A stretch of 64,000 bases of DNA from an uncultured Gemmatimonadales bacterium (GTDB lineage: Bacteria; Gemmatimonadota; Gemmatimonadetes; Gemmatimonadales; Gemmatimonadaceae), in the NCBI GenBank assembly GCA_963793305.1, contig CAWBZV010000003.1, forward strand, positions 224,001 to 288,000, in the 5' to 3' direction. Below, piece after piece: positions 21,969 through 33,805 of this stretch. The translations under genes were made by a program, and so were the position numbers. The notes below the pieces were generated by a model. That model did no database searches and had not been told where the DNA came from. It saw only the letters and a program-made list of their open reading frames with translations. Position 1 is the first letter of the stretch; each line of letters begins with the position of its first letter.

Positions 21969-23729
21969 TCAAGGGGTTGACCCGGCTCCGTACGGCGCGT
22001 AAGGAGGGATCGAAATCGGCAGTCTCCCGGTCGCGGGCGCGAGCCCCAGGATCACTCGCGCGGCGGCTTGCTGCGACACGGGGAATCCGCCCCAGCCGAC
22101 GACATAATTCTGGGCCCACGGGATCTGCTGCAGGAAGTACGGGTTGCCGAGGGCGACGATGATCGGGCGCCGGAGCTTCTGCAGAAAAGAGATAACCGAT
22201 CCCGGCGCGTTGAGGCTCGCCGCATCCCAGCTCTGGGCGACATACGACGACACGATGACCACGTCGGCCGAGTCGGCCGTCGCCATCAGCGCATACGTGT
22301 CGCCCGGCTGGTCGGCGTCGACATACTCGGCCCGCAATCCGGGAAAATTCTGTCGCAGGACCGCGTTGAACGTGATGCCCGCGCCAAGGTCCGCCCGGCG
22401 CGCCACGGTGATGCTCAGGACCCGGGCATTCTTATTCAGTCTGCCAATCGGCAACTGGTGCAGCGAGTCCCGGACGATGGTTATCGACCGCTCGGCCACA
22501 GTTTTGGCCAGCGCCTGGTCGGCCGAGTCCCCAACGATATCGCTGATGCTATCGAGATCGACCAGCCGGTGCCGGTCCAAGTGCAGCGCGTGTTTCATGT
22601 TCAGCAGTCGCCGCACCGACTCGTCGAGCCGTGCCTCGGTATACCGCCCCTCGTGCACCCCATCGACAATCGCATTGATGGCTTGAGCCACGTCCTTCGG
22701 CTGAATGAGCACATCAGCTCCAGCCGCCACGGCGCGCTTCGCCGCTTCGACGGCGCCGTACTGTACCAGCACACCCTGCATATCCATGGCGTCAGAGATC
22801 ACGACCCCTTTGAACCCCAGCTCGCCTCTCAACAACCCGGTCAGCACCTTGGGAGATAACGTCCCGGGTGCGCCAGATGAATCGAGCGCCGGCATCGATC
22901 CATGGAACGACATAATGGCACCAACGCCAGCGCTGACCGCCGCACGGAATGGGACCAGTTCAACGGTGTCTAGACGAGCGCGCGAGACGTTTACGACCGG
23001 GAGTGCGAGGTGCGAGTTCGTCTCCGTGTCGCCATGACCGGGAAAATGTTTTCCGGTGGCGATCATCCCGTGATCTTGGAGTCCAGCGATAAACGCCCGG
23101 CCGAACGCTGCGTCGAGCGAGGGTGACTCTCCGTACGATCTCGTGTTGATCACCGGGTTGCTCGCGTTGTTGTTCACGTCGAGCACCGGTGCGTAGTCGA
23201 TATGTATGCCGAGCGCGCGCCCTTCGGCCGCCGTCACTCTGGCCTCTTCGTAGGCGAGCATCGTGTCGCGCGTAGCCCCGAATGCCATCTCCGGGGGAAA
23301 CACGACGGCGCCGCCCAGGTCTATGGCATTGGGCAGGAAGTACCCGCCCCGCGCCCGCTGGCCAGCGCCAAACTCCAGATCGGCGCCCACTAATAGAGGG
23401 ACCGCGGCGGATCGCTGCAGTGCGTTCAGCTTCTCGGCGATCTCGAGTGGGGAGCCTACCGAGACCGTGAGTCCGCCGACGCCTTCATCGACGACGTAGT
23501 GCCGAATGGCTCGCCACTGCGGCGAATCCGTGCTGACGAAGTCGCCGATCATGCTCGGCCAGACCATCTGCGCGGCCTTCTGGCGCAGAGTCATGCTCGC
23601 CATCACGGAATCCACCCACACGGCAGGTGGTGGCCTAAGCGCAGACGGCTGTGTCACGACAGGTCGAGTCCGTGCACAGCCGAGGGCGAACAGCGCGGCA
23701 GCCAGAGGCGCAGCGCGAAGCGCGCGCAT
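21969..23729 (-). CDS. GH3 beta-N-acetylglucosaminidase (lipoprotein)
   Basis: Lipobox LFALGC; APVLDVNNN, KHFPGHGDT..NSH, ISDAMDM. Confidence 0.92.
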   Translation of the reverse strand: MRALRAAPLAAALFALGCARTRPVVTQPSALRPPPAVWVDSVMASMTLRQKAAQMVWPSMIGDFVSTDSPQWRAIRHYVVDEGVGGLTVSVGSPLEIAEKLNALQRSAAVPLLVGADLEFGAGQRARGGYFLPNAIDLGGAVVFPPEMAFGATRDTMLAYEEARVTAAEGRALGIHIDYAPVLDVNNNASNPVINTRSYGESPSLDAAFGRAFIAGLQDHGMIATGKHFPGHGDTETNSHLALPVVNVSRARLDTVELVPFRAAVSAGVGAIMSFHGSMPALDSSGAPGTLSPKVLTGLLRGELGFKGVVISDAMDMQGVLVQYGAVEAAKRAVAAGADVLIQPKDVAQAINAIVDGVHEGRYTEARLDESVRRLLNMKHALHLDRHRLVDLDSISDIVGDSADQALAKTVAERSITIVRDSLHQLPIGRLNKNARVLSITVARRADLGAGITFNAVLRQNFPGLRAEYVDADQPGDTYALMATADSADVVIVSSYVAQSWDAASLNAPGSVISFLQKLRRPIIVALGNPYFLQQIPWAQNYVVGWGGFPVSQQAAARVILGLAPATGRLPISIPPYAPYGAGSTP

Positions 23730-23734
23730 GGCGC

Positions 23735-24004
23735 TTACCAGTTGATAGTTCCCTGCTTCGACGTGTCCACGTCTTCCTGACGCCCGGACTTGAACAAAAA
23801 CGCGTCCAGGTTCCGCGTCAGGAATTGTCTCGCCTGGGGATCCATGACATTCAACCCGTAGTGGTTGATGAGCATAGTCTGCTGTTTGAGCCACTGACCC
23901 CAGCACTCTTTGCAGATCTCCGCGACGATGCGCTGCCCCAGGGCGCCGGGAAATGGCGCCTTCTCGAATCCCTCGCGAGACTGGCCGCAACGGGTACAGG
24001 TCAC
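23735..24004 (-). CDS. Fe(II)-trafficking / oxidative-damage protection protein (YggX family)
   Basis: PFPGALGQRI...CWGQWLKQQTMLINHYGLN. Confidence 0.88.
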   Translation of the reverse strand: MTCTRCGQSREGFEKAPFPGALGQRIVAEICKECWGQWLKQQTMLINHYGLNVMDPQARQFLTRNLDAFLFKSGRQEDVDTSKQGTINW

Positions 24005-24005
24005 T

Positions 24006-24761
24006 TTACGCGGTCACACGGGCGTATTGGACCTTGGCCAGGCGAACGAGCGCCAGGAGGCGGATATAGAACCAGCCCACATCGAACTCGAACCACTTGG
24101 CCTTGAACTTGGCCGAGTGCGGATCGGCGTGGTGGTTGTTGTGGAGCTCTTCGCCGCCGAGCCAGATCGCCAGTGGCACGATGTTCCGGCTCTCGTCCTT
24201 GACGTCGAAGCTCCGGTAGCCGATCGCGTGGCCAATGCCGTTGATCACGCCGGCAGCCCAGAACGGGATCCAGATCATCTGCACGGCCCAGACGATCGCG
24301 CCGATCATGAGGCCGAAGAGATAGAGGTCGATCCCGAGGAGCAGGACAATGCCGAGCGTGTTACGGCGAGTCAGGAGGTGGCGCTCGAGCCAGTCGTTCG
24401 GCGTGCCCTTGCCGTACTTCTCCAGCACGCCGGGCTGGCCAATGGTCTTCCGGTAATAGAAGGCACCCTTGATCAGGATGTTGCGCAGCCCTTCGAGGAG
24501 CGGGCTGTGCGGATCACCCTCGCGGTCGGCAAACGCGTGGTGCTTGCGGTGCACGGCGACCCACTCCTTCGTGACGATCGACGTGGTCAGCCAGAGCCAG
24601 ATCCGCATGGGGATCGACGCGATCGCGTGGAAGGTCACGCTGCAATGCGTTTGCGAGCGGTGCAGAAACAAAGTCACGCACACGTTGGTGATGTGTCCCA
24701 TCACGACCACGACCACGATCGGGATCCACCAGTGTGACGACAAGATGCCGTAGAAGGGCAT
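24006..24761 (-). CDS. Fatty acid (delta-9-type) desaturase
   Basis: His boxes LHRSQTH, HRKHH, LHNNHH. Confidence 0.93.
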   Translation of the reverse strand: MPFYGILSSHWWIPIVVVVVMGHITNVCVTLFLHRSQTHCSVTFHAIASIPMRIWLWLTTSIVTKEWVAVHRKHHAFADREGDPHSPLLEGLRNILIKGAFYYRKTIGQPGVLEKYGKGTPNDWLERHLLTRRNTLGIVLLLGIDLYLFGLMIGAIVWAVQMIWIPFWAAGVINGIGHAIGYRSFDVKDESRNIVPLAIWLGGEELHNNHHADPHSAKFKAKWFEFDVGWFYIRLLALVRLAKVQYARVTA

Positions 24762-24828
24762 TCACATTCCTCGAAGATGAGTCGACGCTACTTGAACTTA
24801 GCGGATTTTCCCGCTTCGCGCGACCGGC

Positions 24829-26691
24829 CTACTTATTGACGCTCGGTGCGTTCAATCCGGCACTCGGTGGAGCGCCCCACGTGTCATTCGCCGGATTCCA
24901 GTCGGGCACCATGCCATCCGGCCAGAGCCGCGCGCCAGTCACCGCGCTTTTGACAGTGACTACCGCCTTGAACACGTTTCCGCGCGACCAAATGTCGACG
25001 GGCAGGTGAACGTCTTGCGTCGACCCATTGGCGAGCGCCAATCGCATGGACACGGGAAACACGATCGACGTGTTCTTGCTCAGGGTCACGACCGCCACCT
25101 CCGCACCGTCCTGCTCGCTGTTCACGACGTTGTCGATGCCGATATCCAGCACGTCGGTCGAGTAAAAGAACCCGCGCCAGAACCACGACAAATCCTGTCC
25201 CGACACGTTCTCCATCGTCCGGAAGAAGTCGGCCGGTGTTGGATGCTTGAACGCCCAGCGATGGACGTACTCCCGCATGGCGCGGTCCATGGTCTCGCGA
25301 CCGATGACATTGTTCCGCAGCGTGAGCAGCACCGCGCCGGGTTTGCGGTAGCCGACCGCGTCGTAGCCCTTTTCGCTGATGTGGTCGGGCGCGGTCATGA
25401 GCGGCGTCTGGGAGCCGTTGTCGACGGCGGCTTTCCAGTCAGCCAGGTATGTGCTCCAGACTGACGTCCCGGGATACCGGGCGTCATTCGCGAACGCATT
25501 CATGTACGTGTTGATCCCTTCATCCATCCACGCATAGCGCCGCTCGTTCGACCCGACGATCATCGGGAACCACTCGTGCCCTTGCTCGTGATTGAGCACG
25601 CGGAAGATCGATTGCGGATCGTCGGTGCCGTAGGGCACCATCACGAACATCGGATACTCCATCCCCGTGAGCGTCCCCGTGACCGTGGTCGCTTGCGGGT
25701 ACGGGTATGGATACAGAAGCTCCGAGTACTGCCGGATGGTCCACTGCGTCATCTCGGCGGCGGACTCCCAGCTTTTGTGTGCCTTGGCGATCTGGTAGTA
25801 CGCCTGGCAGAGAACGCCGTGCCAACTCGTCGCATCCCACCGGAAATCCGGCGCGGCCGCCCACGCCACATCTCTCACGCGCACGGCTCTGAATCGCCAC
25901 GTTTTCGTGCCCCGCGTCGTCTTGGCGACCGCCTCTGAATCCGCGATGATGGCAATGACCGCGCTCGATTCGCTCGCGCGCGCCAATCGCGACTGTTGGG
26001 TGGATGTCAGGACGTCGCGAGCATTTTGTAGAGTCCCGGAGCCCGCGACCGTGTAGCCGGCCGGTACCGTTACCGAGTAGTCGATATCCCCGTACTCGAG
26101 ATAGAACTCGCCTTGGCCGAGGTACTGATCGACGTTCCACCCGCGAACGTCATCATAGACGGCCATGCGGGGATACCACTGGGCGATCGTGTACAATGTC
26201 CCGTCGCGACCCATGCGATCCGAGCCGTGCACCGGCACGACGAACGAGTACGCCACCGCAATCGTGATCGTGCCGCCATGCGGCGGAAGCGGCGACGCGA
26301 GATCGAGCCGCATCATGGTGTCGTGGATCTTGGGCTCGACGCGCACCCCATCGACCTTCACGTCGGACAACGTGTACCCGCCATCAGTGTCCGTGGCGAA
26401 CAGGTACGACCCCTCGCTGCCCGCACGAAACAGATTCTGATCGAGTTGCATCCAGACGAACCGCAATGTGTCCGGCGAGTTGTTCGTGTACCGCACGGTC
26501 ACGGATCCGGTCACACGCTTTGCCCCGGTGTCGAGCGCGGCGGCGATCGTGTAGTCGGCCCGCTGCTGCCAATACTCTGGGCCGGGCTCGCCCGTCGACG
26601 ATCGATACGCGTTCGGCCCAGGCCAATCGTCGCGCTCTTGAGCCTGGGCCGTCACCGCGCCGAGGAGCAACACAGCGATCAGAGCTTTCAT
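24829..26691 (-). CDS. M1-family metallopeptidase
   Basis: YWQQRADY, GMEYPM, HEQGHEWF...WMDEG. Confidence 0.93.
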   Translation of the reverse strand: MKALIAVLLLGAVTAQAQERDDWPGPNAYRSSTGEPGPEYWQQRADYTIAAALDTGAKRVTGSVTVRYTNNSPDTLRFVWMQLDQNLFRAGSEGSYLFATDTDGGYTLSDVKVDGVRVEPKIHDTMMRLDLASPLPPHGGTITIAVAYSFVVPVHGSDRMGRDGTLYTIAQWYPRMAVYDDVRGWNVDQYLGQGEFYLEYGDIDYSVTVPAGYTVAGSGTLQNARDVLTSTQQSRLARASESSAVIAIIADSEAVAKTTRGTKTWRFRAVRVRDVAWAAAPDFRWDATSWHGVLCQAYYQIAKAHKSWESAAEMTQWTIRQYSELLYPYPYPQATTVTGTLTGMEYPMFVMVPYGTDDPQSIFRVLNHEQGHEWFPMIVGSNERRYAWMDEGINTYMNAFANDARYPGTSVWSTYLADWKAAVDNGSQTPLMTAPDHISEKGYDAVGYRKPGAVLLTLRNNVIGRETMDRAMREYVHRWAFKHPTPADFFRTMENVSGQDLSWFWRGFFYSTDVLDIGIDNVVNSEQDGAEVAVVTLSKNTSIVFPVSMRLALANGSTQDVHLPVDIWSRGNVFKAVVTVKSAVTGARLWPDGMVPDWNPANDTWGAPPSAGLNAPSVNK

Positions 26692-28052
26692 ATCACCACG
26701 GCAAGAGTGTCGACCCGTCCGGTCGCCTCATCGATGATGGCGACACGGTGGGCATTGGTGTCCGCGACATACACTTTGCCGTCGTGATACACCACACCAC
26801 TCGGCTCGGCGAGCCCACGCACCCAGGTATCAACCCGGCGCGTCGCGGGATCGACCCACTTGATGGCGTCATTGTACGAATCCGTAATGAGCAGCCGGCC
26901 ATCGGGATGCCGCGCGATGCCCTGGGGATGCTCGAGCCGGACCTCGTCGCCCACGCCGTCCTTGTCGCCGAAGTCAAAGAGCCCAGTCCCGACTATCGTC
27001 TGCACCCTCGCATTGGCTCCCAGCGTGGCGTACCGGACGGCACTCGACTCCGCGTCCACAAAGTCCAGCCGGTCGCCACCGCCCACGATGCCCATGGGCT
27101 GTGCCAGCAATGCCGCCTGAGCAGGGCCGTCAACGATGTCTTCCCCGGGCGCGCCGGCGAAGAGCGAAGCGTGGCCGCCCTCGATGCGCCAGATCTGATG
27201 TCGCCCGGCGCCGGCTACATAGACGGCTGGCCCGACGACAGTGAGGTCCCAGGGTGAAGAGATGCGTCCCGCGATGGGCTCCATAGTTCCGCGGGAGAGA
27301 TCCCCGACTACCACCCGATGGTTCGCCCGATCCGCGATGTACAGCCGGTCGCCAGCAAACGCGACGCCCTGAGGAGACGCTAGCCCGTTGAACTCGCGCT
27401 CGACCCGCATCGCAGTGCCACCCTCGCCGAGCCGGCCGACGAGCACACGGTCGTGCCCGCTATCGGCGATGGCAATGCGATCGCCGTCGATCGTGACCTT
27501 GCCGGGGTACCGAAGGACACCAGGGGCGATTGCCGGATCATCGGGCGGGAAATGCCGAGGTGTCCGGTCGATCAGCCCGTCTGGATCGAACGCTCCAATA
27601 AGCCGCTCGATAAACGGCTCCAGCATCTCGCTCGTGAACTCACCGGCATGCGACCCGACGACATACCCGGTCGGATCGACGGCCACGACCGTCGGCCACG
27701 CCCGCACGGCGTAGCTCCGCCAGATGCGAAACTGCCGATCGTTGACGATCGGATGGAGGTTGTCCAGGCGTAACGCCGCCTCGCGGATGCGCGGCGTCTC
27801 GCGCTCGGCGATGAACTTGCCGCTCTCCACGCCGATGATCGCGATCTCGCGAGGGAACTGCCGCTCGAGCTCCCGCAACTGCGGGAGTACGTGAATGCAG
27901 TTGATTCAGCCGTAGGTCCAGAAGTCGAGCAGGACGATCTTCCCCTTGAACATATCCAGGGTCAGCGCCTGCCCGCCGGTGTTGATCCAATCGAGGCCGG
28001 ACGGGAACTGCGGGGCCCGGACGCGCGGCTGCGTCATCTCTCGTTCAGTCAT
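26688..28052 (-). CDS. Thioredoxin-like + NHL-repeat protein with in-frame TGA at the CxxC site (candidate selenoprotein, UxxC)
   Basis: ORFs 27906-28136 and 26688-27878 are in one frame: LLDFWTYG-TGA-INCIHVLPQL; NHL repeats downstream. Confidence 0.88.
27870..27887 (-). other. Candidate bacterial SECIS hairpin
   Basis: CTCCCGC-AGTT-GCGGGAG, stem starting 18 nt 3' of the TGA; G in second loop position. Confidence 0.6.
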
Positions 28053-28737
28053 ATGGGAAGAGTAGCAACTCGCCCGCGGGGAAGTCGAAGACGGTGATCC
28101 ATCGACAGAAGAGGTCGGCGCCCAGCGAGCCCGCAATTTTCATATCGCTCGGTCGCACCTCGACCGACTCCGTCACGGTCACGCCGCCAGGTAGTGACAC
28201 AGTGAGATCCACGCGGCCGTTCGGTCCCGGTACAAAGGAAGTCTGCTGGTACCCGATCATGAAACGCTGACCACCGATGGTCACGAAGTTGCCCTTGAAC
28301 GGGAGGCGACTCACGGGACCATCCAGTGACAGGGCGTCGCGAGTGGTCGCGAAGGCCATGGCCGGCACGGATGCGTCGATGGCCACGACACCGTCGTGGA
28401 AAAACTTCATGCACAGGAATCCGCCAATGGGAGGATCTCCGAAGCGGTACTCTTGGCCGACCACCGCGCGCGTACCCGTGACCGTACGACCGAACGCCGA
28501 TAGCGCCCTGATCTCAGTGAAACGATTCGGGCCCTCGGCGCTCACTGCCAGCCCGCGGTCCTGAGCGTACGATTCATACAGAAAGCAATCGAACGTGCGG
28601 CCGTTCGAGAACATCAGCTGGACCGGCTCGTCGTCGATGCGCGCGGGAATGAATACGACGCCGCCGGAGTTCGTCCGACAGCGAACCATCTCCTCCACGG
28701 TGAAACCCAGCTTTTCGAGCCGCGTTGACCAGCTCAT
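28045..28737 (-). CDS. Hypothetical protein, degenerate tandem retropepsin-like fold
   Basis: VFIPARIDDEPVQLMFSNG, GGFLCMKFF, GSLGADLF...VFDFPAGELLL. Confidence 0.55.
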   Translation of the reverse strand: MSWSTRLEKLGFTVEEMVRCRTNSGGVVFIPARIDDEPVQLMFSNGRTFDCFLYESYAQDRGLAVSAEGPNRFTEIRALSAFGRTVTGTRAVVGQEYRFGDPPIGGFLCMKFFHDGVVAIDASVPAMAFATTRDALSLDGPVSRLPFKGNFVTIGGQRFMIGYQQTSFVPGPNGRVDLTVSLPGGVTVTESVEVRPSDMKIAGSLGADLFCRWITVFDFPAGELLLFPYD

Positions 28738-28747
28738 TGGTCGCCTC

Positions 28748-29335
28748 ATGTGGCGTGTGTTCCGGCACCGCGCCCATAGTATGGTCATCGGCGGCATGAA
28801 TGTCTTCACGTCCGACGATTCCGACATGGGCCGGGCGGTCGCCTTGCGCGCCCGCCTCGGACTCGCGCTGGACCTCATCGACCAATACGCGCCGCGAATC
28901 GGGGTCCGGCTACGCCGCAACGTCGTCGCCATCTTCCTCTGGCGAGTCGGAGGCACGTCGTACAACCCCTACACGCGAGTGATCCTGGTGGACGTGCGGT
29001 GGGGCATGATAGGGGAGCTCGAAGATCTGGCCCTCTCCCTGGTACACGAGGCGACGCATGCGCGGCAAATGACGATGGGGCTGCGCAAGCTGCGGCGCGG
29101 CAAAGGTCTCGAGCGGCGCATGGAGGCGCACGCGGTCGCCGCGAGCATCGCCTTTGCCGACCGGCTGCCGCCCGGCAGGTGGCGGAAGCCCACGCTCGCG
29201 GATCTCGACAAGAAGTGGTGGACGCTCGAGAACCTGGAGGCGCGACTGACGAAGGATGTGAAGGAGATTGGCGTGCCCGCCGAAGCAATCCGGATGGTGG
29301 CCGGAGCCATGCGAATGCTCGGGCTGCGGCAATGA
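28748..29335 (+). CDS. Hypothetical HExxH (zincin-like) protein; start uncertain (28748 or 28781)
   Basis: LALSLVHEATHARQ...RMEAHA; ATGA overlap with the next gene. Confidence 0.6.
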   Translation: MWRVFRHRAHSMVIGGMNVFTSDDSDMGRAVALRARLGLALDLIDQYAPRIGVRLRRNVVAIFLWRVGGTSYNPYTRVILVDVRWGMIGELEDLALSLVHEATHARQMTMGLRKLRRGKGLERRMEAHAVAASIAFADRLPPGRWRKPTLADLDKKWWTLENLEARLTKDVKEIGVPAEAIRMVAGAMRMLGLRQ

Positions 29336-30420
29336 CGGATCAGATCCCGGCCCATCATCGCCCCGGTGGCGGATTTCAGAATCCCTGGGGCCCCGGGAGC
29401 CAGCAAGCGCGGTTCGGACAATTCTTGAGGTGGGCACTGTTCGAGCGCCCACGGACGACACGTCGGGGCACTCCCGACCGGGCCACGTTCGCGGCCGCTC
29501 ACCTGCCCGTGGCGCCGAGCTTCTCGGTTCGCGAGTCGCCCGAAACGCTCGCGATCACCTGGATCGGGCACTCCAGCTTTCTCGTTCAGATCGCCGGGCA
29601 AAACCTGTTGCTCGACCCCGTCTGGGGTGACCGCGCATCGCCGATATCCTGGCTCGGTCCCCAGCAATGGACCCCGCCCGGGATTCCGTTTGACGCGCTG
29701 CCGCCGGTCGACGGGGTCATCCTCTCGCATGACCACTACGACCACCTGGACCAGCCGACTGTACGGCGTTTGGTGAAGCGCTACCCCGAGGCTCAATGGC
29801 GCGCGCCATTGGGCGTGGGACACTGGTTACGCCGAAGGGGAGTGAGCCAAGTGCAGGAGGCCGATTGGTGGGACCAGACCGACCTCGGGCCCCTCAAGCT
29901 CACCGCGACACCGGCGCAGCACTTCTCGGGTCGCCGTCTCGATAATCGAAACGGGACCCTCTGGTGTGGATGGGTCATCCGCGGCGGCGCGGCTCCGCCG
30001 CGCGTCGAGGCGGCAAACAGCGCCGCTCGACTGGTCGGTTGGACCGATCCGGCTCCGCCGACTCCTCACACGGTATTTTTTGCCGGCGACACCGGCGCCC
30101 ACCCGGTTTTTCCCGAGATCGGACAGCGCCACGGCCCGTTCGACGCCGTGCTCATGCCGATCGGAGCCTACGACCCCGAGTGGTTCATGGGCCCCGTTCA
30201 CATCGACCCGGAGCGCGCGGTCTCGGCGTTCCAAGCCCTGAACGCCGGTGACGCCACCATGGTCGCCATGCATTGGGGTACGTTCCAGCTCACCGACGAG
30301 CCAATGGACGAACCCCCCAAACGCGCGACCGCTGCATGGGCGAATGCGGGTCTCCCGCCACACCGGCTCTGGATCCCATCACTCGGCGAGACGAGACGCT
30401 GGCCGTTACACACGCACTGA
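29332..30420 (+). CDS. MBL-fold hydrolase (NAPE-PLD-like) carrying an in-frame repeat insertion
   Basis: TWIGHSS, SHDHYDHLD, PAQHFSGR, FAGDTG, MPIGAY, MHWGTF. Confidence 0.93.
   Translation: MTDQIPAHHRPGGGFQNPWGPGSQQARFGQFLRWALFERPRTTRRGTPDRATFAAAHLPVAPSFSVRESPETLAITWIGHSSFLVQIAGQNLLLDPVWGDRASPISWLGPQQWTPPGIPFDALPPVDGVILSHDHYDHLDQPTVRRLVKRYPEAQWRAPLGVGHWLRRRGVSQVQEADWWDQTDLGPLKLTATPAQHFSGRRLDNRNGTLWCGWVIRGGAAPPRVEAANSAARLVGWTDPAPPTPHTVFFAGDTGAHPVFPEIGQRHGPFDAVLMPIGAYDPEWFMGPVHIDPERAVSAFQALNAGDATMVAMHWGTFQLTDEPMDEPPKRATAAWANAGLPPHRLWIPSLGETRRWPLHTH
29987..30062 (-). repeat. Multi-hairpin repeat element, copy 2 (antisense, in-frame inside the MBL gene)
   Basis: Minus strand TCGGC-GGA-GCCGG ATCGGTCCAACCGACCA GTCGA-GCGGC-gctgttt-GCCGC-C-TCGAC GCGCGGC-GGA-GCCGCGC. 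Confidence 0.9.
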
Positions 30421-30485
30421 GCTACCCTACGGGTAGCACGTAGCAGGCGCACACATTCTCCACCCGTCACATTGGAGCACGCGCC

Positions 30486-30942
30486 ATGGCCAGTTCGAAG
30501 CGCACACGTCGTCCCACGAAGTCGGCCCGCAAACCTGCTCGCGCGAAGTCATCGAAGCGCGCGAGTGCGCGCAGCAGTTCTACGCGCAGAACGTCAGCAC
30601 GTCGCGCCGCGAGCGCGACGAAGACGGCCAAGGTTGCGAAGAAGGCAGCCGCACCAGCAAAGAAGGTTGCCGCTCCCGCCAAAGCTGCTGCACCGGCGAA
30701 GAAGGTTGCTGCACCGGTGAAGGCAGTGAAGGCCGCCGCACCAGCAAAGAAGGCTGCTGCACCGGCGAAAGCAGCTGTCGCACCAGCTACCCGCACCCGT
30801 AGCACCCGCGCCAGTCGCACCAGCACCCACGCCAGTCGTCGCCGCCGCCGACGCGGCGCCAAAGGCAACGAGCAAGTCGAAGAAAGCTGCGGCGCCTGCG
30901 CCGACACCTGGTCCAGTTACCAGCGAGCCGCCGCGCATGTAG
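30486..30942 (+). CDS. Histone-H1-like Lys/Ala/Pro-rich protein (frameshift at ~30790)
   Basis: APAKK repeats; continues in another frame as PAPVAPAP...SKKAAAPAP...EPPRM-stop. Confidence 0.7.
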
Positions 30943-31585: not shown

Positions 31586-32425
31586 ATGACTGTCCGATAT
31601 GGTTTCGCCGTCGCCAACGGCGCCTCCGTCTTCTATCGCGAAGCCGGTGATCCCAACGCTCCATCGCTACTCCTGCTGCACGGATTCCCGACCTCATCGC
31701 ACATGTTCCGCGACCTCATTCCGCTGCTCGCGGACCGCTACCATGTGGTCGCGCCCGATCTTCCCGGGTTCGGCTTTTCCGACTCGCCGAAACGCGCGAG
31801 ATTCAATGAGTTGGCCAAGACGGTGGACGCCTTCACCACCGCCGTCGGACTGACACGATTCGCGATCTACGTGTTCGACTACGGCGCGCCGGTCGGATTC
31901 CGTCTCGCGCTCGCGCATCCCGAGCGGATCACGGCCATCATCTCACAGAACGGCAACGCGTACGAGGAAGGCCTGAGCGCCGAGGGCTGGAATCCCATCC
32001 AGAACTACTGGCGCTCGCCGACCGCCGAGAACCGCAACGCGCTGCGCGGTTTCCTTAAGCCGAATGCCACCCAGTGGCAGTACTCGCATGGCGTGGGCGA
32101 CGCCTCGCGCCTGGCGCCCGAGGCATGGACGCTCGACTCGGCCCTTCTCGCGCGGCCGGGAAACGATGAGATCCAGCTCGACCTCTTTCTCGACTACGCG
32201 TCGAACGTCGCGCTCTACCCGAAGTTCCAGGAGTATCTGCGCACGAACCAGCCGCCCTTGCTCGCGACCTGGGGGAAGAACGACCCGTTCTTTCTTCCCG
32301 CTGGGGCCGAGGCATTCAAGCGGGATGTCCCGAAGGCCCAGGTGCAGTTCTTCGATACCGGACACTTCGCGCTCGAGACGCACGCTACCGAGATCGCCGC
32401 CGCGATCAAGGGCTTCCTGAACTAA
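31586..32425 (+). CDS. Alpha/beta hydrolase (epoxide hydrolase / dehalogenase-like)
   Basis: [36 protein letters not shown]. Confidence 0.92.
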
Positions 32426-33805
32426 ACGTTCTTGACCTCGCTCACCAACTTGGTGAGCGAGGCTTTCGCGTCCCCAAAGAGCATGCTCGTCTTTGGATCA
32501 TAGAACAACTCGTTCTCGATCCCCGCGAATCCGGGATTCATGCTGCGCTTCATGACGATCACGCTGCGGGCGCGATCGACGTTCAATATCGGCATCCCGT
32601 AGATCGGACTCCCGGGATCCGTGCGCGCGGCTGGATTCACCACGTCATTCGCCCCGATCACCAGCACGACATCGGTCTTGTCGAACTCGCCGTTGATCTG
32701 CTCCATGTCGTAGAGCCGGTCATACGGGACGTTCGGCCTCGGCCAGCAGCACGTTCATGTGCCCGGGCATGCGCCCCGCGACGGGATGTATCGCGTACTT
32801 AACGTCCCCACCGCGATGCTCGATCAGCTCGGCCAACTCGCGGACGACGTGCTGCGACTGGGCGACCGCCATGCCGTACCCGGGCACGATGATCACGCGC
32901 CCGGCGTAGGCGAGACGGAGCGCCGCGTCCTCGGCCGAGACCGGCGTGTACGATTGACCCGTGGCGAGCGTCTTCGTCGTTGTCACGACGCTGCCGAACG
33001 CGCCGAACAACACGTTCGAGAACGACCGGTTCATCGCCTTGCTCATGAGGATCGAGAGCAAGAACCCCGACGCGCCGTCGAGCGCGCCGGCGATGATCAA
33101 CACGTTGTTGCCGATCGCGAACCCGGTCGCGGCTGACGCGAGGCCGGCGTACGAGTTGAGCAGCGACACGACCACCGGCATGTCCGCGCCGCCAATGGGC
33201 AGTACCATCGACATGCCGATCACGAGCCCCAGGGCGATCATCCCGTAGAAAAACATCGTCTGGTCCGGCCGTGCGATCAGATAGATGAAGATGCCGAACG
33301 TGAGCGCGAAGAGCGTGAGGTTGAACGCGTTCTGTCCGCGGAACGTGATCGGTCGCCCGGGCATGAGCTCGGCCAACTTGAGCGTCGCCATCAAGCTGCC
33401 GGTGATCGTCAGCGACCCGAACATCACCTCGAAGCCGAGCGCCGTCATCTCACCGTGGCTGAGGATACCGCCCGAGTTGTAGTACGTGGCCACGCCGACC
33501 AGTGTCGCGGCGACCGCGCCGAACATGTGCGAGATCGCGATCCGTTGCGGCATCGCGGTCATGGGCACGAACATGCCCAGGGGGTACCCGATGAGCGTGC
33601 CGAGCGCGAGACCGGCCACGATCCATTGGTACTCGACGATCTCGTGCTTGACTAGCGTGCCGACGATGGCCAGGACCATCCCGATCGCCGCTTGCTGCAT
33701 ACCCCGCCGCGCAAACTCGGGCCGCGTGAGGCTGCGGAGCCCGAGGATGAACATGACGGACGCGGCGAGGTACGTCGCCTCGATGAAGATGTCGCGGACC
33801 GGCAT
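32422..33805 (-). CDS. pntB: NAD(P) transhydrogenase beta subunit (frameshift at ~32732)
   Basis: [37 protein letters not shown]; continues as VPYD...[11 protein letters not shown]. Confidence 0.95.

Follow-up and report, generated by a model that had tools for sequence, protein, structure and literature searches.

NHLRC2 and SOQ1 share a core in which a thioredoxin-like domain with a CCINC motif is followed by an NHL beta-propeller. NHLRC2 is an essential mammalian protein whose gene carries mutations in FINCA disease, and its biochemical function is open according to the available portions of PMC6107167 and of the preprint bioRxiv 2024.11.01.621559. The accessible text of that preprint also reports that the C431-C434 pair of Arabidopsis SOQ1 reduces the protein's own C-terminal domain (CTD) in vitro, in one direction, and that insulin is reduced neither by the SOQ1 thioredoxin domain nor by NHLRC2. 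Bacterial homologues without a CTD and without operon conservation are described in the available sections of PMC6107167, where they are considered orthologues of NHLRC2 and the conserved NHLRC2 residues map to the thioredoxin-propeller cleft; no mention of a selenocysteine (Sec) form of the family was found in those sections. Here we describe a gene of this family in a 64,000-nucleotide stretch of DNA (the window; positions 224,001 to 288,000 of contig CAWBZV010000003.1, GenBank assembly GCA_963793305.1) from an uncultured Gemmatimonadales bacterium, in which an in-frame TGA occupies the position of the redox-active cysteine. We give a probability of about 0.9 to the reading that we are dealing with one selenoprotein gene, a two-domain member of the NHLRC2/SOQ1 family, whose product would act as a client-specific reductase. 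The internal stop almost certainly encodes Sec at the redox site, as judged from the comparisons of genomes set out below.

The minus-strand frame runs from an ATG at 28052 to a TGA at 26688 and is open except for one internal stop, the TGA at 27908-27906 (codon 49). An earlier note on this DNA had placed that codon at the first Cys of a DFWTYxCINC motif, and the frame, its translation and the alignment of homologues all bear this out. The context reads DFWTYG-U-INCIHVLPQLRE (G-U-I-N-C), and translation with TGA as U gives 454 aa; a possible second start is the ATG at 28037. Reading with translation table 11 splits the gene into a 5' fragment and a 396-aa product, which is the kind of split that the earlier note had anticipated of gene callers. 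The earlier note had also called for a check of reads at 27906. A public contig, X1, possibly from the source study, is identical to the window over 27583-28200, and a contig from a second study covering 27864-28052 has two differences, at 27952-27953; the TGA is kept in both, these being assembled contigs and not raw reads.

Pfam recognizes Thioredoxin_8 at aa 37-131, followed by NHL repeats. An AlphaFold2 model, built from a 58-row alignment with C in place of U and one extra terminal residue, shows a thioredoxin domain with a six-bladed propeller packed against it (mean predicted local distance difference score 92.9, predicted template modelling score 0.91). The lumenal domains of SOQ1 (7djj, 7djk) share this architecture and the FWTYxCINC motif, with a phmmer E-value of 1e-77 to 7djj and a Foldseek template modelling (TM) score of 0.91 over the whole chain, at 34% identity, to 7djk. 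U49-C52 aligns to C431-C434, so that U takes the place of the second Cys in CCINC and C52 that of the third. Unlike SOQ1, the protein described here has Sec for C431 and Gly for C430, and it lacks the HAD domain, the membrane helix and the C-terminal nDsbD-like domain. Human NHLRC2 (6gc1, 6g7w), which is likewise of cytosolic type, has the same two-domain core (TM 0.91 and phmmer 3e-58, both to 6gc1) and the same cis-Pro, found here in W-P-T, and U49-C52 aligns to its C90-C93; the differences are Sec at the C90 position, GUINC instead of CCINC, a more compact propeller and replacement of the His of G-V-H-S in the genus. The cis-Pro is kept in 54/54 rows of our alignment. Gly rather than the extra Cys of CCINC precedes U, as it also precedes the site in 18/20 Cys rows. 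No N-terminal hydrophobic stretch was seen by eye, and the protein is presumably cytoplasmic.

The chain stops 19 aa past the last blade motif, and the C-terminal nDsbD-like domain with its Cys pair is absent; PMC6107167 has described such a group without the CTD, and the protein is one of its members. Each of the 48 closed long TGA frames among the loci we collected ends after the propeller, at most 477 aa past the site. Of the 69 closed long Cys frames, by contrast, 55 extend at least 531 aa, most of them with a C-terminal domain bearing a Cys pair. Conversely, one open-ended TGA gene (L179) does carry the C-terminal domain, and 14 Cys relatives of full length, found in the 120 best database matches, likewise end after the propeller. 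As judged from these frames, CTD loss is a trait of the clade and not of Sec. A search of the host genome for a free CTD gene gave nothing significant with a clean bacterial CTD profile, which replaced a first hidden Markov model contaminated by propeller repeats. The best, non-significant match (E 0.37) was a stand-alone nDsbD-like open reading frame (ORF) of 158 aa, open-framed, at C3:662473 (+).

The earlier note had proposed looking for selA, selB, selC and selD, and all four were found: the genome carrying the window (G000) has selA, selB, selD and a tRNA-Sec(UCA). The tRNA adjoins selD, has the anticodon UCA, is typed as tRNA-SeC and has tRNA-Sec as its top Rfam match. A scan of this genome for UxxC and CxxU motifs, which is not an exhaustive selenoproteome, returned the NHL gene and a formate dehydrogenase (fdh) gene as convincing, in addition to selD. 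The hairpin of selD itself is formed by RNAfold, yet fails the strict energy rule for a selenocysteine insertion sequence (SECIS). TGA is also the commonest stop in the genome, ending 53% of 1,270 long ORFs, the NHL gene included, and hence the code is not reassigned.

We then compared the site among relatives. Close orthologues with 62-97% identity occur in 7 of 40 relatives, and in all seven the codon is TGA and is followed by 404-477 open codons. GTDB genomes gave 561 loci, and in the best 80 of these TGA stands at the site in 17 (14 Gemmatimonadota and 3 Chloroflexota, the latter comprising 2 Chloroflexia and 1 Anaerolineae) and TGC or TGT in 63; one search pattern used for this set was biased towards Cys forms, and the 17 TGA loci include two that duplicate genomes of the 40-relative set. 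Across 300 genomes from the phylum, 17 non-self matches at E<=1e-38 divide into 7 with TGA and 10 with Cys. The pairing of TGA and Cys codons among homologues that had been suggested as a check is therefore seen at exactly this site. Sec machinery, as selA or tRNA-Sec(UCA), is present in 28/28 other TGA genomes tested: selA in 25, selB in 26, and tRNA-Sec(UCA) in the remaining three without a selA match. In the Cys genomes tested, selA is present in 15/32. These counts include related genomes, and no p-value is given since kin are not independent; two unpublished genomes (G012, G332) contribute one row each and no conclusion depends on either. A distant thioredoxin match of 31% identity in a further genome (G008 C199:19453-19938, minus strand) also contains one TGA. 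With the Sec machinery in the genome, TGA kept in contigs of two studies and homologues carrying TGA, none of the three findings on which the earlier note would have withdrawn its selenoprotein candidate was encountered, and the candidate is supported.

The perfect 7-bp hairpin that had been pointed out downstream of the TGA is present at 27887-27870 (CTCCCGC-AGTT-GCGGGAG). It begins 18 nt past the TGA (+19), its pair probabilities are 1.0, and its AGUU loop follows a 25-nt spacer at -13.9 kcal/mol. The bacterial SECIS (bSECIS) model, as given in the available text of PMC13188914, has a loop of 3-9 nt with G in its first two positions, 16-37 nt from the UGA, on a stem of 4-16 bp at <= -7.5 kcal/mol, and the hairpin fits this rule, as the earlier note had wished to see tested. 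For comparison across genes we assembled 169 loci (57 long TGA, 39 short TGA and 73 Cys genes), after removal of 4 duplicates and of loci that were too short (13/80 of those from metagenomes). The metagenome loci came from a scan with the pattern FWT-x-x-TGA-x-N-C, which does not include the hairpin; 120 stretches matched and 80 of them were used. Across the 57 long TGA genes, of which 56 are distinct, 94% of the cells of the 7-bp stem are paired. Four of the seven pairs covary, with 25 cells altered on both sides, a value that 0/500 shuffles equalled (the shuffle ignores relatedness) and that slid controls fell far below. The both-side swaps comprise C-G, U-A and G-C at the pair adjoining the core, and swaps in the stem alter the residue encoded after P-Q-L-R (E, K, Q or R). 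P-Q-L-R itself is encoded by CCG CAG TTG CGG in 49/49 genes, against 1.5% expected from the codon use of the genome. A simplified bSECIS rule holds for 51/57 long TGA genes, 36/39 short TGA genes and the fdh gene, and for 3/73 Cys genes. A long-range helix pairing AACTGC with GCAGTT at +45 was also considered and rejected, as it showed no real covariation.

The recoding mechanism would be the ordinary, textbook one. SelB with Sec-tRNA(UCA) would bind the AGUU-loop hairpin and insert Sec at UGA49 to give a 454-aa cytoplasmic protein, and from the genomic evidence we regard insertion at this codon as very nearly certain. We infer a catalytic role for U49, whose selenolate would attack the oxidised sulfur of a disulfide, sulfenic acid or sulfoxide on a partner in the thioredoxin-propeller cleft; Cys52 would then resolve the mixed intermediate, leaving a selenenylsulfide, and the enzyme would be recharged in the cytoplasm by thioredoxin reductase or a low-molecular-weight thiol. 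One candidate for the recycling reductant is a TrxB-like protein at C5:980615 of the same genome, which scores 319.7 bits, just under the TIGR01292 cut-off. Since the CTD reported to accept the electrons of SOQ1 is missing here, the electron acceptor is expected to be a separate molecule. The reductase direction with such a client seems somewhat better than an even bet. For the same lack of a CTD, the methionine sulfoxide reductase (Msr) function of SOQ1 cannot be carried over. It might nevertheless be that Sec is inserted and the protein is itself a peroxide, sulfenic-acid or methionine-sulfoxide reductase, its selenolate doing the chemistry that SOQ1 hands to the CTD. This would agree with the absence of the CTD from all 48 closed long TGA frames and of any free CTD above noise in the genome. 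However, CTD loss is not tied to Sec, as the 14 CTD-less Cys relatives and the CTD-bearing L179 show, and the genome has genes that are MsrA- and MsrB-like by motif. Msr activity is reported for the SOQ1 lumenal domains, but the accessible text of the preprint (bioRxiv 2024.11.01.621559) assigns it to the CTD cysteines and not to the thioredoxin motif. We therefore favour an external client over direct oxide reduction by Sec, which we consider unlikely.

Other explanations of the TGA fare worse. Gene callers do list a 394-396-aa product starting past it, and at least one apparent indel lesion lies nearby, in a gene that we take from its translation to be pntB (NAD(P) transhydrogenase beta). 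The TGA might accordingly be put down to nonsense mutation or to an error of assembly, and the gene taken for a pseudogene or for two separate genes. But the TGA is shared by orthologues of several genera in two phyla with both halves conserved in frame, it is kept in contigs of two studies and followed by a covarying hairpin, and according to the model a split would cut the thioredoxin fold at its active site. Cross-genus conservation refutes this explanation in practice, and we assign it almost no credence. The Cys found at the site in homologues could equally suit a UGA read as Trp or Cys, through code reassignment or a suppressor tRNA, but with TGA ending over half of the long ORFs and the UCA tRNA beside selD identified as tRNA-Sec, this is extremely improbable. 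The UGA and hairpin might instead serve mainly as a selenium-sensing switch, in which an alternative pairing or translational coupling controls the downstream M1 peptidase. The alternative CAACTGC/GCAGTTG pairing indicated by the earlier note does exist, being possible in 96% of cells, and the stop of the NHL gene overlaps the peptidase start (ATGA) in four genomes of the genus. However, the helix is weaker than the SECIS hairpin (-7.9 vs -13.9 kcal/mol) and nearly without covariation (2 cells altered on both sides, at one pair; 120/500 shuffles as high), it follows from the fixed I-N-C codons, and the overlap is not conserved beyond the genus. The helix also uses bases +3 to +9, which should sit inside the ribosome during UGA decoding. 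It was rejected as a functional element, and a switch of this kind is quite improbable.

Several observations count against the preferred reading, a Sec-containing, client-specific reductase. Its support is genomic, and Sec insertion is deduced from it. The hairpin alone is not beyond chance, because 1,925 TGA triplets out of 143,213 in this genome are followed by a Watson-Crick hairpin of at least 7 bp with bSECIS spacing; what chance does not account for is that orthologues conserve it and that it covaries among them. The simplified bSECIS rule is a weak test alone, as it also holds for 153/1,115 ordinary TGA stops, fails for 6/57 long TGA genes and fails for the genome's own selD hairpin. 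Contigs from RNA runs of relatives span the TGA site, with relatives holding a small share, and cannot show expression. General reductase activity is not expected, because neither the SOQ1 thioredoxin domain nor NHLRC2 reduces insulin. Residue 76 (27825-27827, minus strand) is Glu where G-V-H-S has His, and Glu or Ser in the genus, whereas the His is present in 30/34 Sec rows and 20/20 Cys rows; together with the shorter propeller, this may mean that the activity of this lineage differs. Finally, no conserved neighbour points to the client: 33 hand-picked long-TGA loci gave 78 candidate ORFs in the neighbourhood, and in the 70 of them scanned with Pfam no family recurred across clades.

The history of the site was examined in a midpoint-drawn tree of 54 hand-picked full-length rows out of 130 long genes, with the Sec/Cys site masked. 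The starred branches force at least four Sec/Cys changes, and a single clade of all Sec rows was rejected (approximately unbiased test, p-AU 1e-5, on a quick tree). The Cys genes of G112, G305 and three Longimicrobiaceae nest in a Sec-dominated clade (support 95), in which that of G112 (L128) has the G300 TGA gene as its sister (support 99). The genomes G112 and G305 (L128 and L135) retain selA, selB and tRNA-Sec; neither selA nor selB was detected in the genomes of the three Longimicrobiaceae, for which completeness is not given. L128 keeps P-Q-L-R, now with the codons CAA CTG, and has lost the loop G, features of a decaying SECIS. These placements suggest that Sec has reverted to Cys at least three times, twice in genomes keeping the Sec machinery. 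If true, such repeated returns would run in a direction that the 2026 review PMC13188914, in its accessible text, calls rare, with FdhA and SelD as the main documented cases, and would supply examples of return accompanied by SECIS decay.

A second TGA class (L145-L224; for example L153:1421-1942:+ and L183:1406-1939:+) is short, with about 106-117 aa past U, and has N-terminal hydrophobic segments and the motif FWT[YF]G-U-INC. Its members carry the identical CCG CAG TTG CGG core in 24/39 cases, and the four tested gave no NCBIfam model over cut-off. They are possibly another uncatalogued selenoprotein family, apparently of exported DipZ-type thioredoxins. The thioredoxin domain of Mycobacterium tuberculosis DipZ (2hyx, 5cyy) is likewise of CINC type (E 2e-19 to our protein) and is likely the nearest type for this short class; unlike our protein, DipZ is exported, has Cys and, in the material available, bears a carbohydrate-binding module instead of a propeller. 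On a single Sec origin for the long and short classes versus convergence, 4 of 44 branches are starred. Convergence of the SECIS core would be plausible, because the Pro (CCG) and Arg (CGG) codons of a helix P-x-L-R are nearly complementary. Taken together, these observations permit a tentative joint reading, possible but on balance doubtful: an uncatalogued multi-phylum family of stand-alone thioredoxin-propeller redox enzymes, with the nucleophile at the C90 position and a client in the cleft without a CTD, in which the NHL-fused thioredoxins and the short exported ones with UINC may both have inherited Sec and the CCGC-AGUU-GCGG SECIS from a common ancestor, many Cys forms being derived by repeated return, also where the Sec system is kept.

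The Sec form of the family has apparently not been catalogued. The family is absent from the available text of PMC13188914 (2026), which covers 119 prokaryotic families, those of Haft and Tolstoy 2025 included, and where "NHL" occurs 0 times. The UxxC thioredoxin-fold selenoproteins in its Table 1 (Prx-like PF00578, redoxin PF08534, thiol-disulfide isomerase-like cd02966 and UGC-type TlpA) resemble our gene in having UGA at the N-terminal CxxC position, a downstream bSECIS and widespread Cys homologues, but none listed there has an NHL propeller. Nor was an NHL selenoprotein found in the accessible text of a 2022 selenoprotein review, the Global Ocean Sampling (GOS) paper, deep-Sep or the algal selenoproteome paper. 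UINC was not found in deep-Sep Table S1, and neither it nor related strings in four GOS text supplements; full-text literature searches combining selenoprotein or Sec with NHL, NHLRC2, DipZ or Gemmatimonad returned nothing relevant, and NCBIfam of June 2026 gave no model over cut-off for the NHL selenoprotein. The unvalidated candidates of Deng et al. 2026, from 44,000 metagenome-assembled genomes, lie outside this comparison and could include the family. In the databases, 106 of the 120 best matches lack the active-site motif, their commonest starts lying just past it, and none carries U, a systematic annotation error by which the gene is cut short. The prokaryotic selenoproteome would gain one family, probably two. 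Sec at the C90/C431 position in CTD-less proteins is an argument for redox chemistry carried out by the two-domain core itself. The bacterial protein, small and soluble, would also provide a model in which natural Sec/Cys pairs could serve to trap substrates, a useful handle on the NHLRC2/SOQ1 family.

Table 1. Features of the selenoprotein gene, its surroundings and other Sec genes of the host genome (window positions unless a genome contig is named)
Feature	Position	Strand	Basis or remark
Thioredoxin-like + NHL beta-propeller selenoprotein gene, 454 aa	26688..28052	-	Translation, Pfam, AlphaFold2 model
In-frame TGA, codon 49, predicted Sec, leads U-I-N-C	27906..27908	-	Aligns to SOQ1 C431, NHLRC2 C90
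Cys52, putative resolving cysteine, sole Cys of the protein	27897..27899	-	
Predicted bacterial SECIS hairpin, overlapping codons L-P-Q-L-R-E	27870..27887	-	Covariation, fixed codons, bSECIS model fit
Thioredoxin-like (TlpA/DipZ-type) domain, about aa 9-157, cis-Pro motif W119-P120-T121	27582..28028	-	Pfam, phmmer, model
Compact six-bladed NHL beta-propeller, aa 183-454	26691..27506	-	About 24 strands in model
Downstream M1 peptidase, ATG overlaps NHL-gene stop (ATGA)	24829..26691	-	Overlap in 4 genomes of genus only
Upstream ORF, stop overlaps NHL-gene start	28045..28965	-	No Pfam/NCBIfam match; genus only
selD with in-frame TGA (C-A-G-U-A-S-K), tRNA-Sec directly after (L012)	G000 C11:59733-60940		
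Formate dehydrogenase alpha, motif A-R-I-U-H-S, in-frame TGA, SECIS-like hairpin	G000 C5:1225121	+	

Coupling of the NHL gene to the M1 peptidase is not a family feature. The peptidase lies in a minus-strand run (23735-26691) with a DesA-like desaturase, which scores below cut-off, and an oxidative damage protection protein (NF003817), and this run is linked to the NHL gene in some Gemmatimonadaceae only. An MBL-fold hydrolase neighbours 22/169 loci, all in a Gemmatimonadaceae-type clade, which kinship explains. No sigma-70 promoter consensus was found at 23000-30500 of the window. The earlier note had described the other lesions in the window as insertions; in the one case looked at, the presumed pntB gene (32422-33805, minus strand), a break near 32735 does look like the insertion of one base, which the assembly probably introduced.

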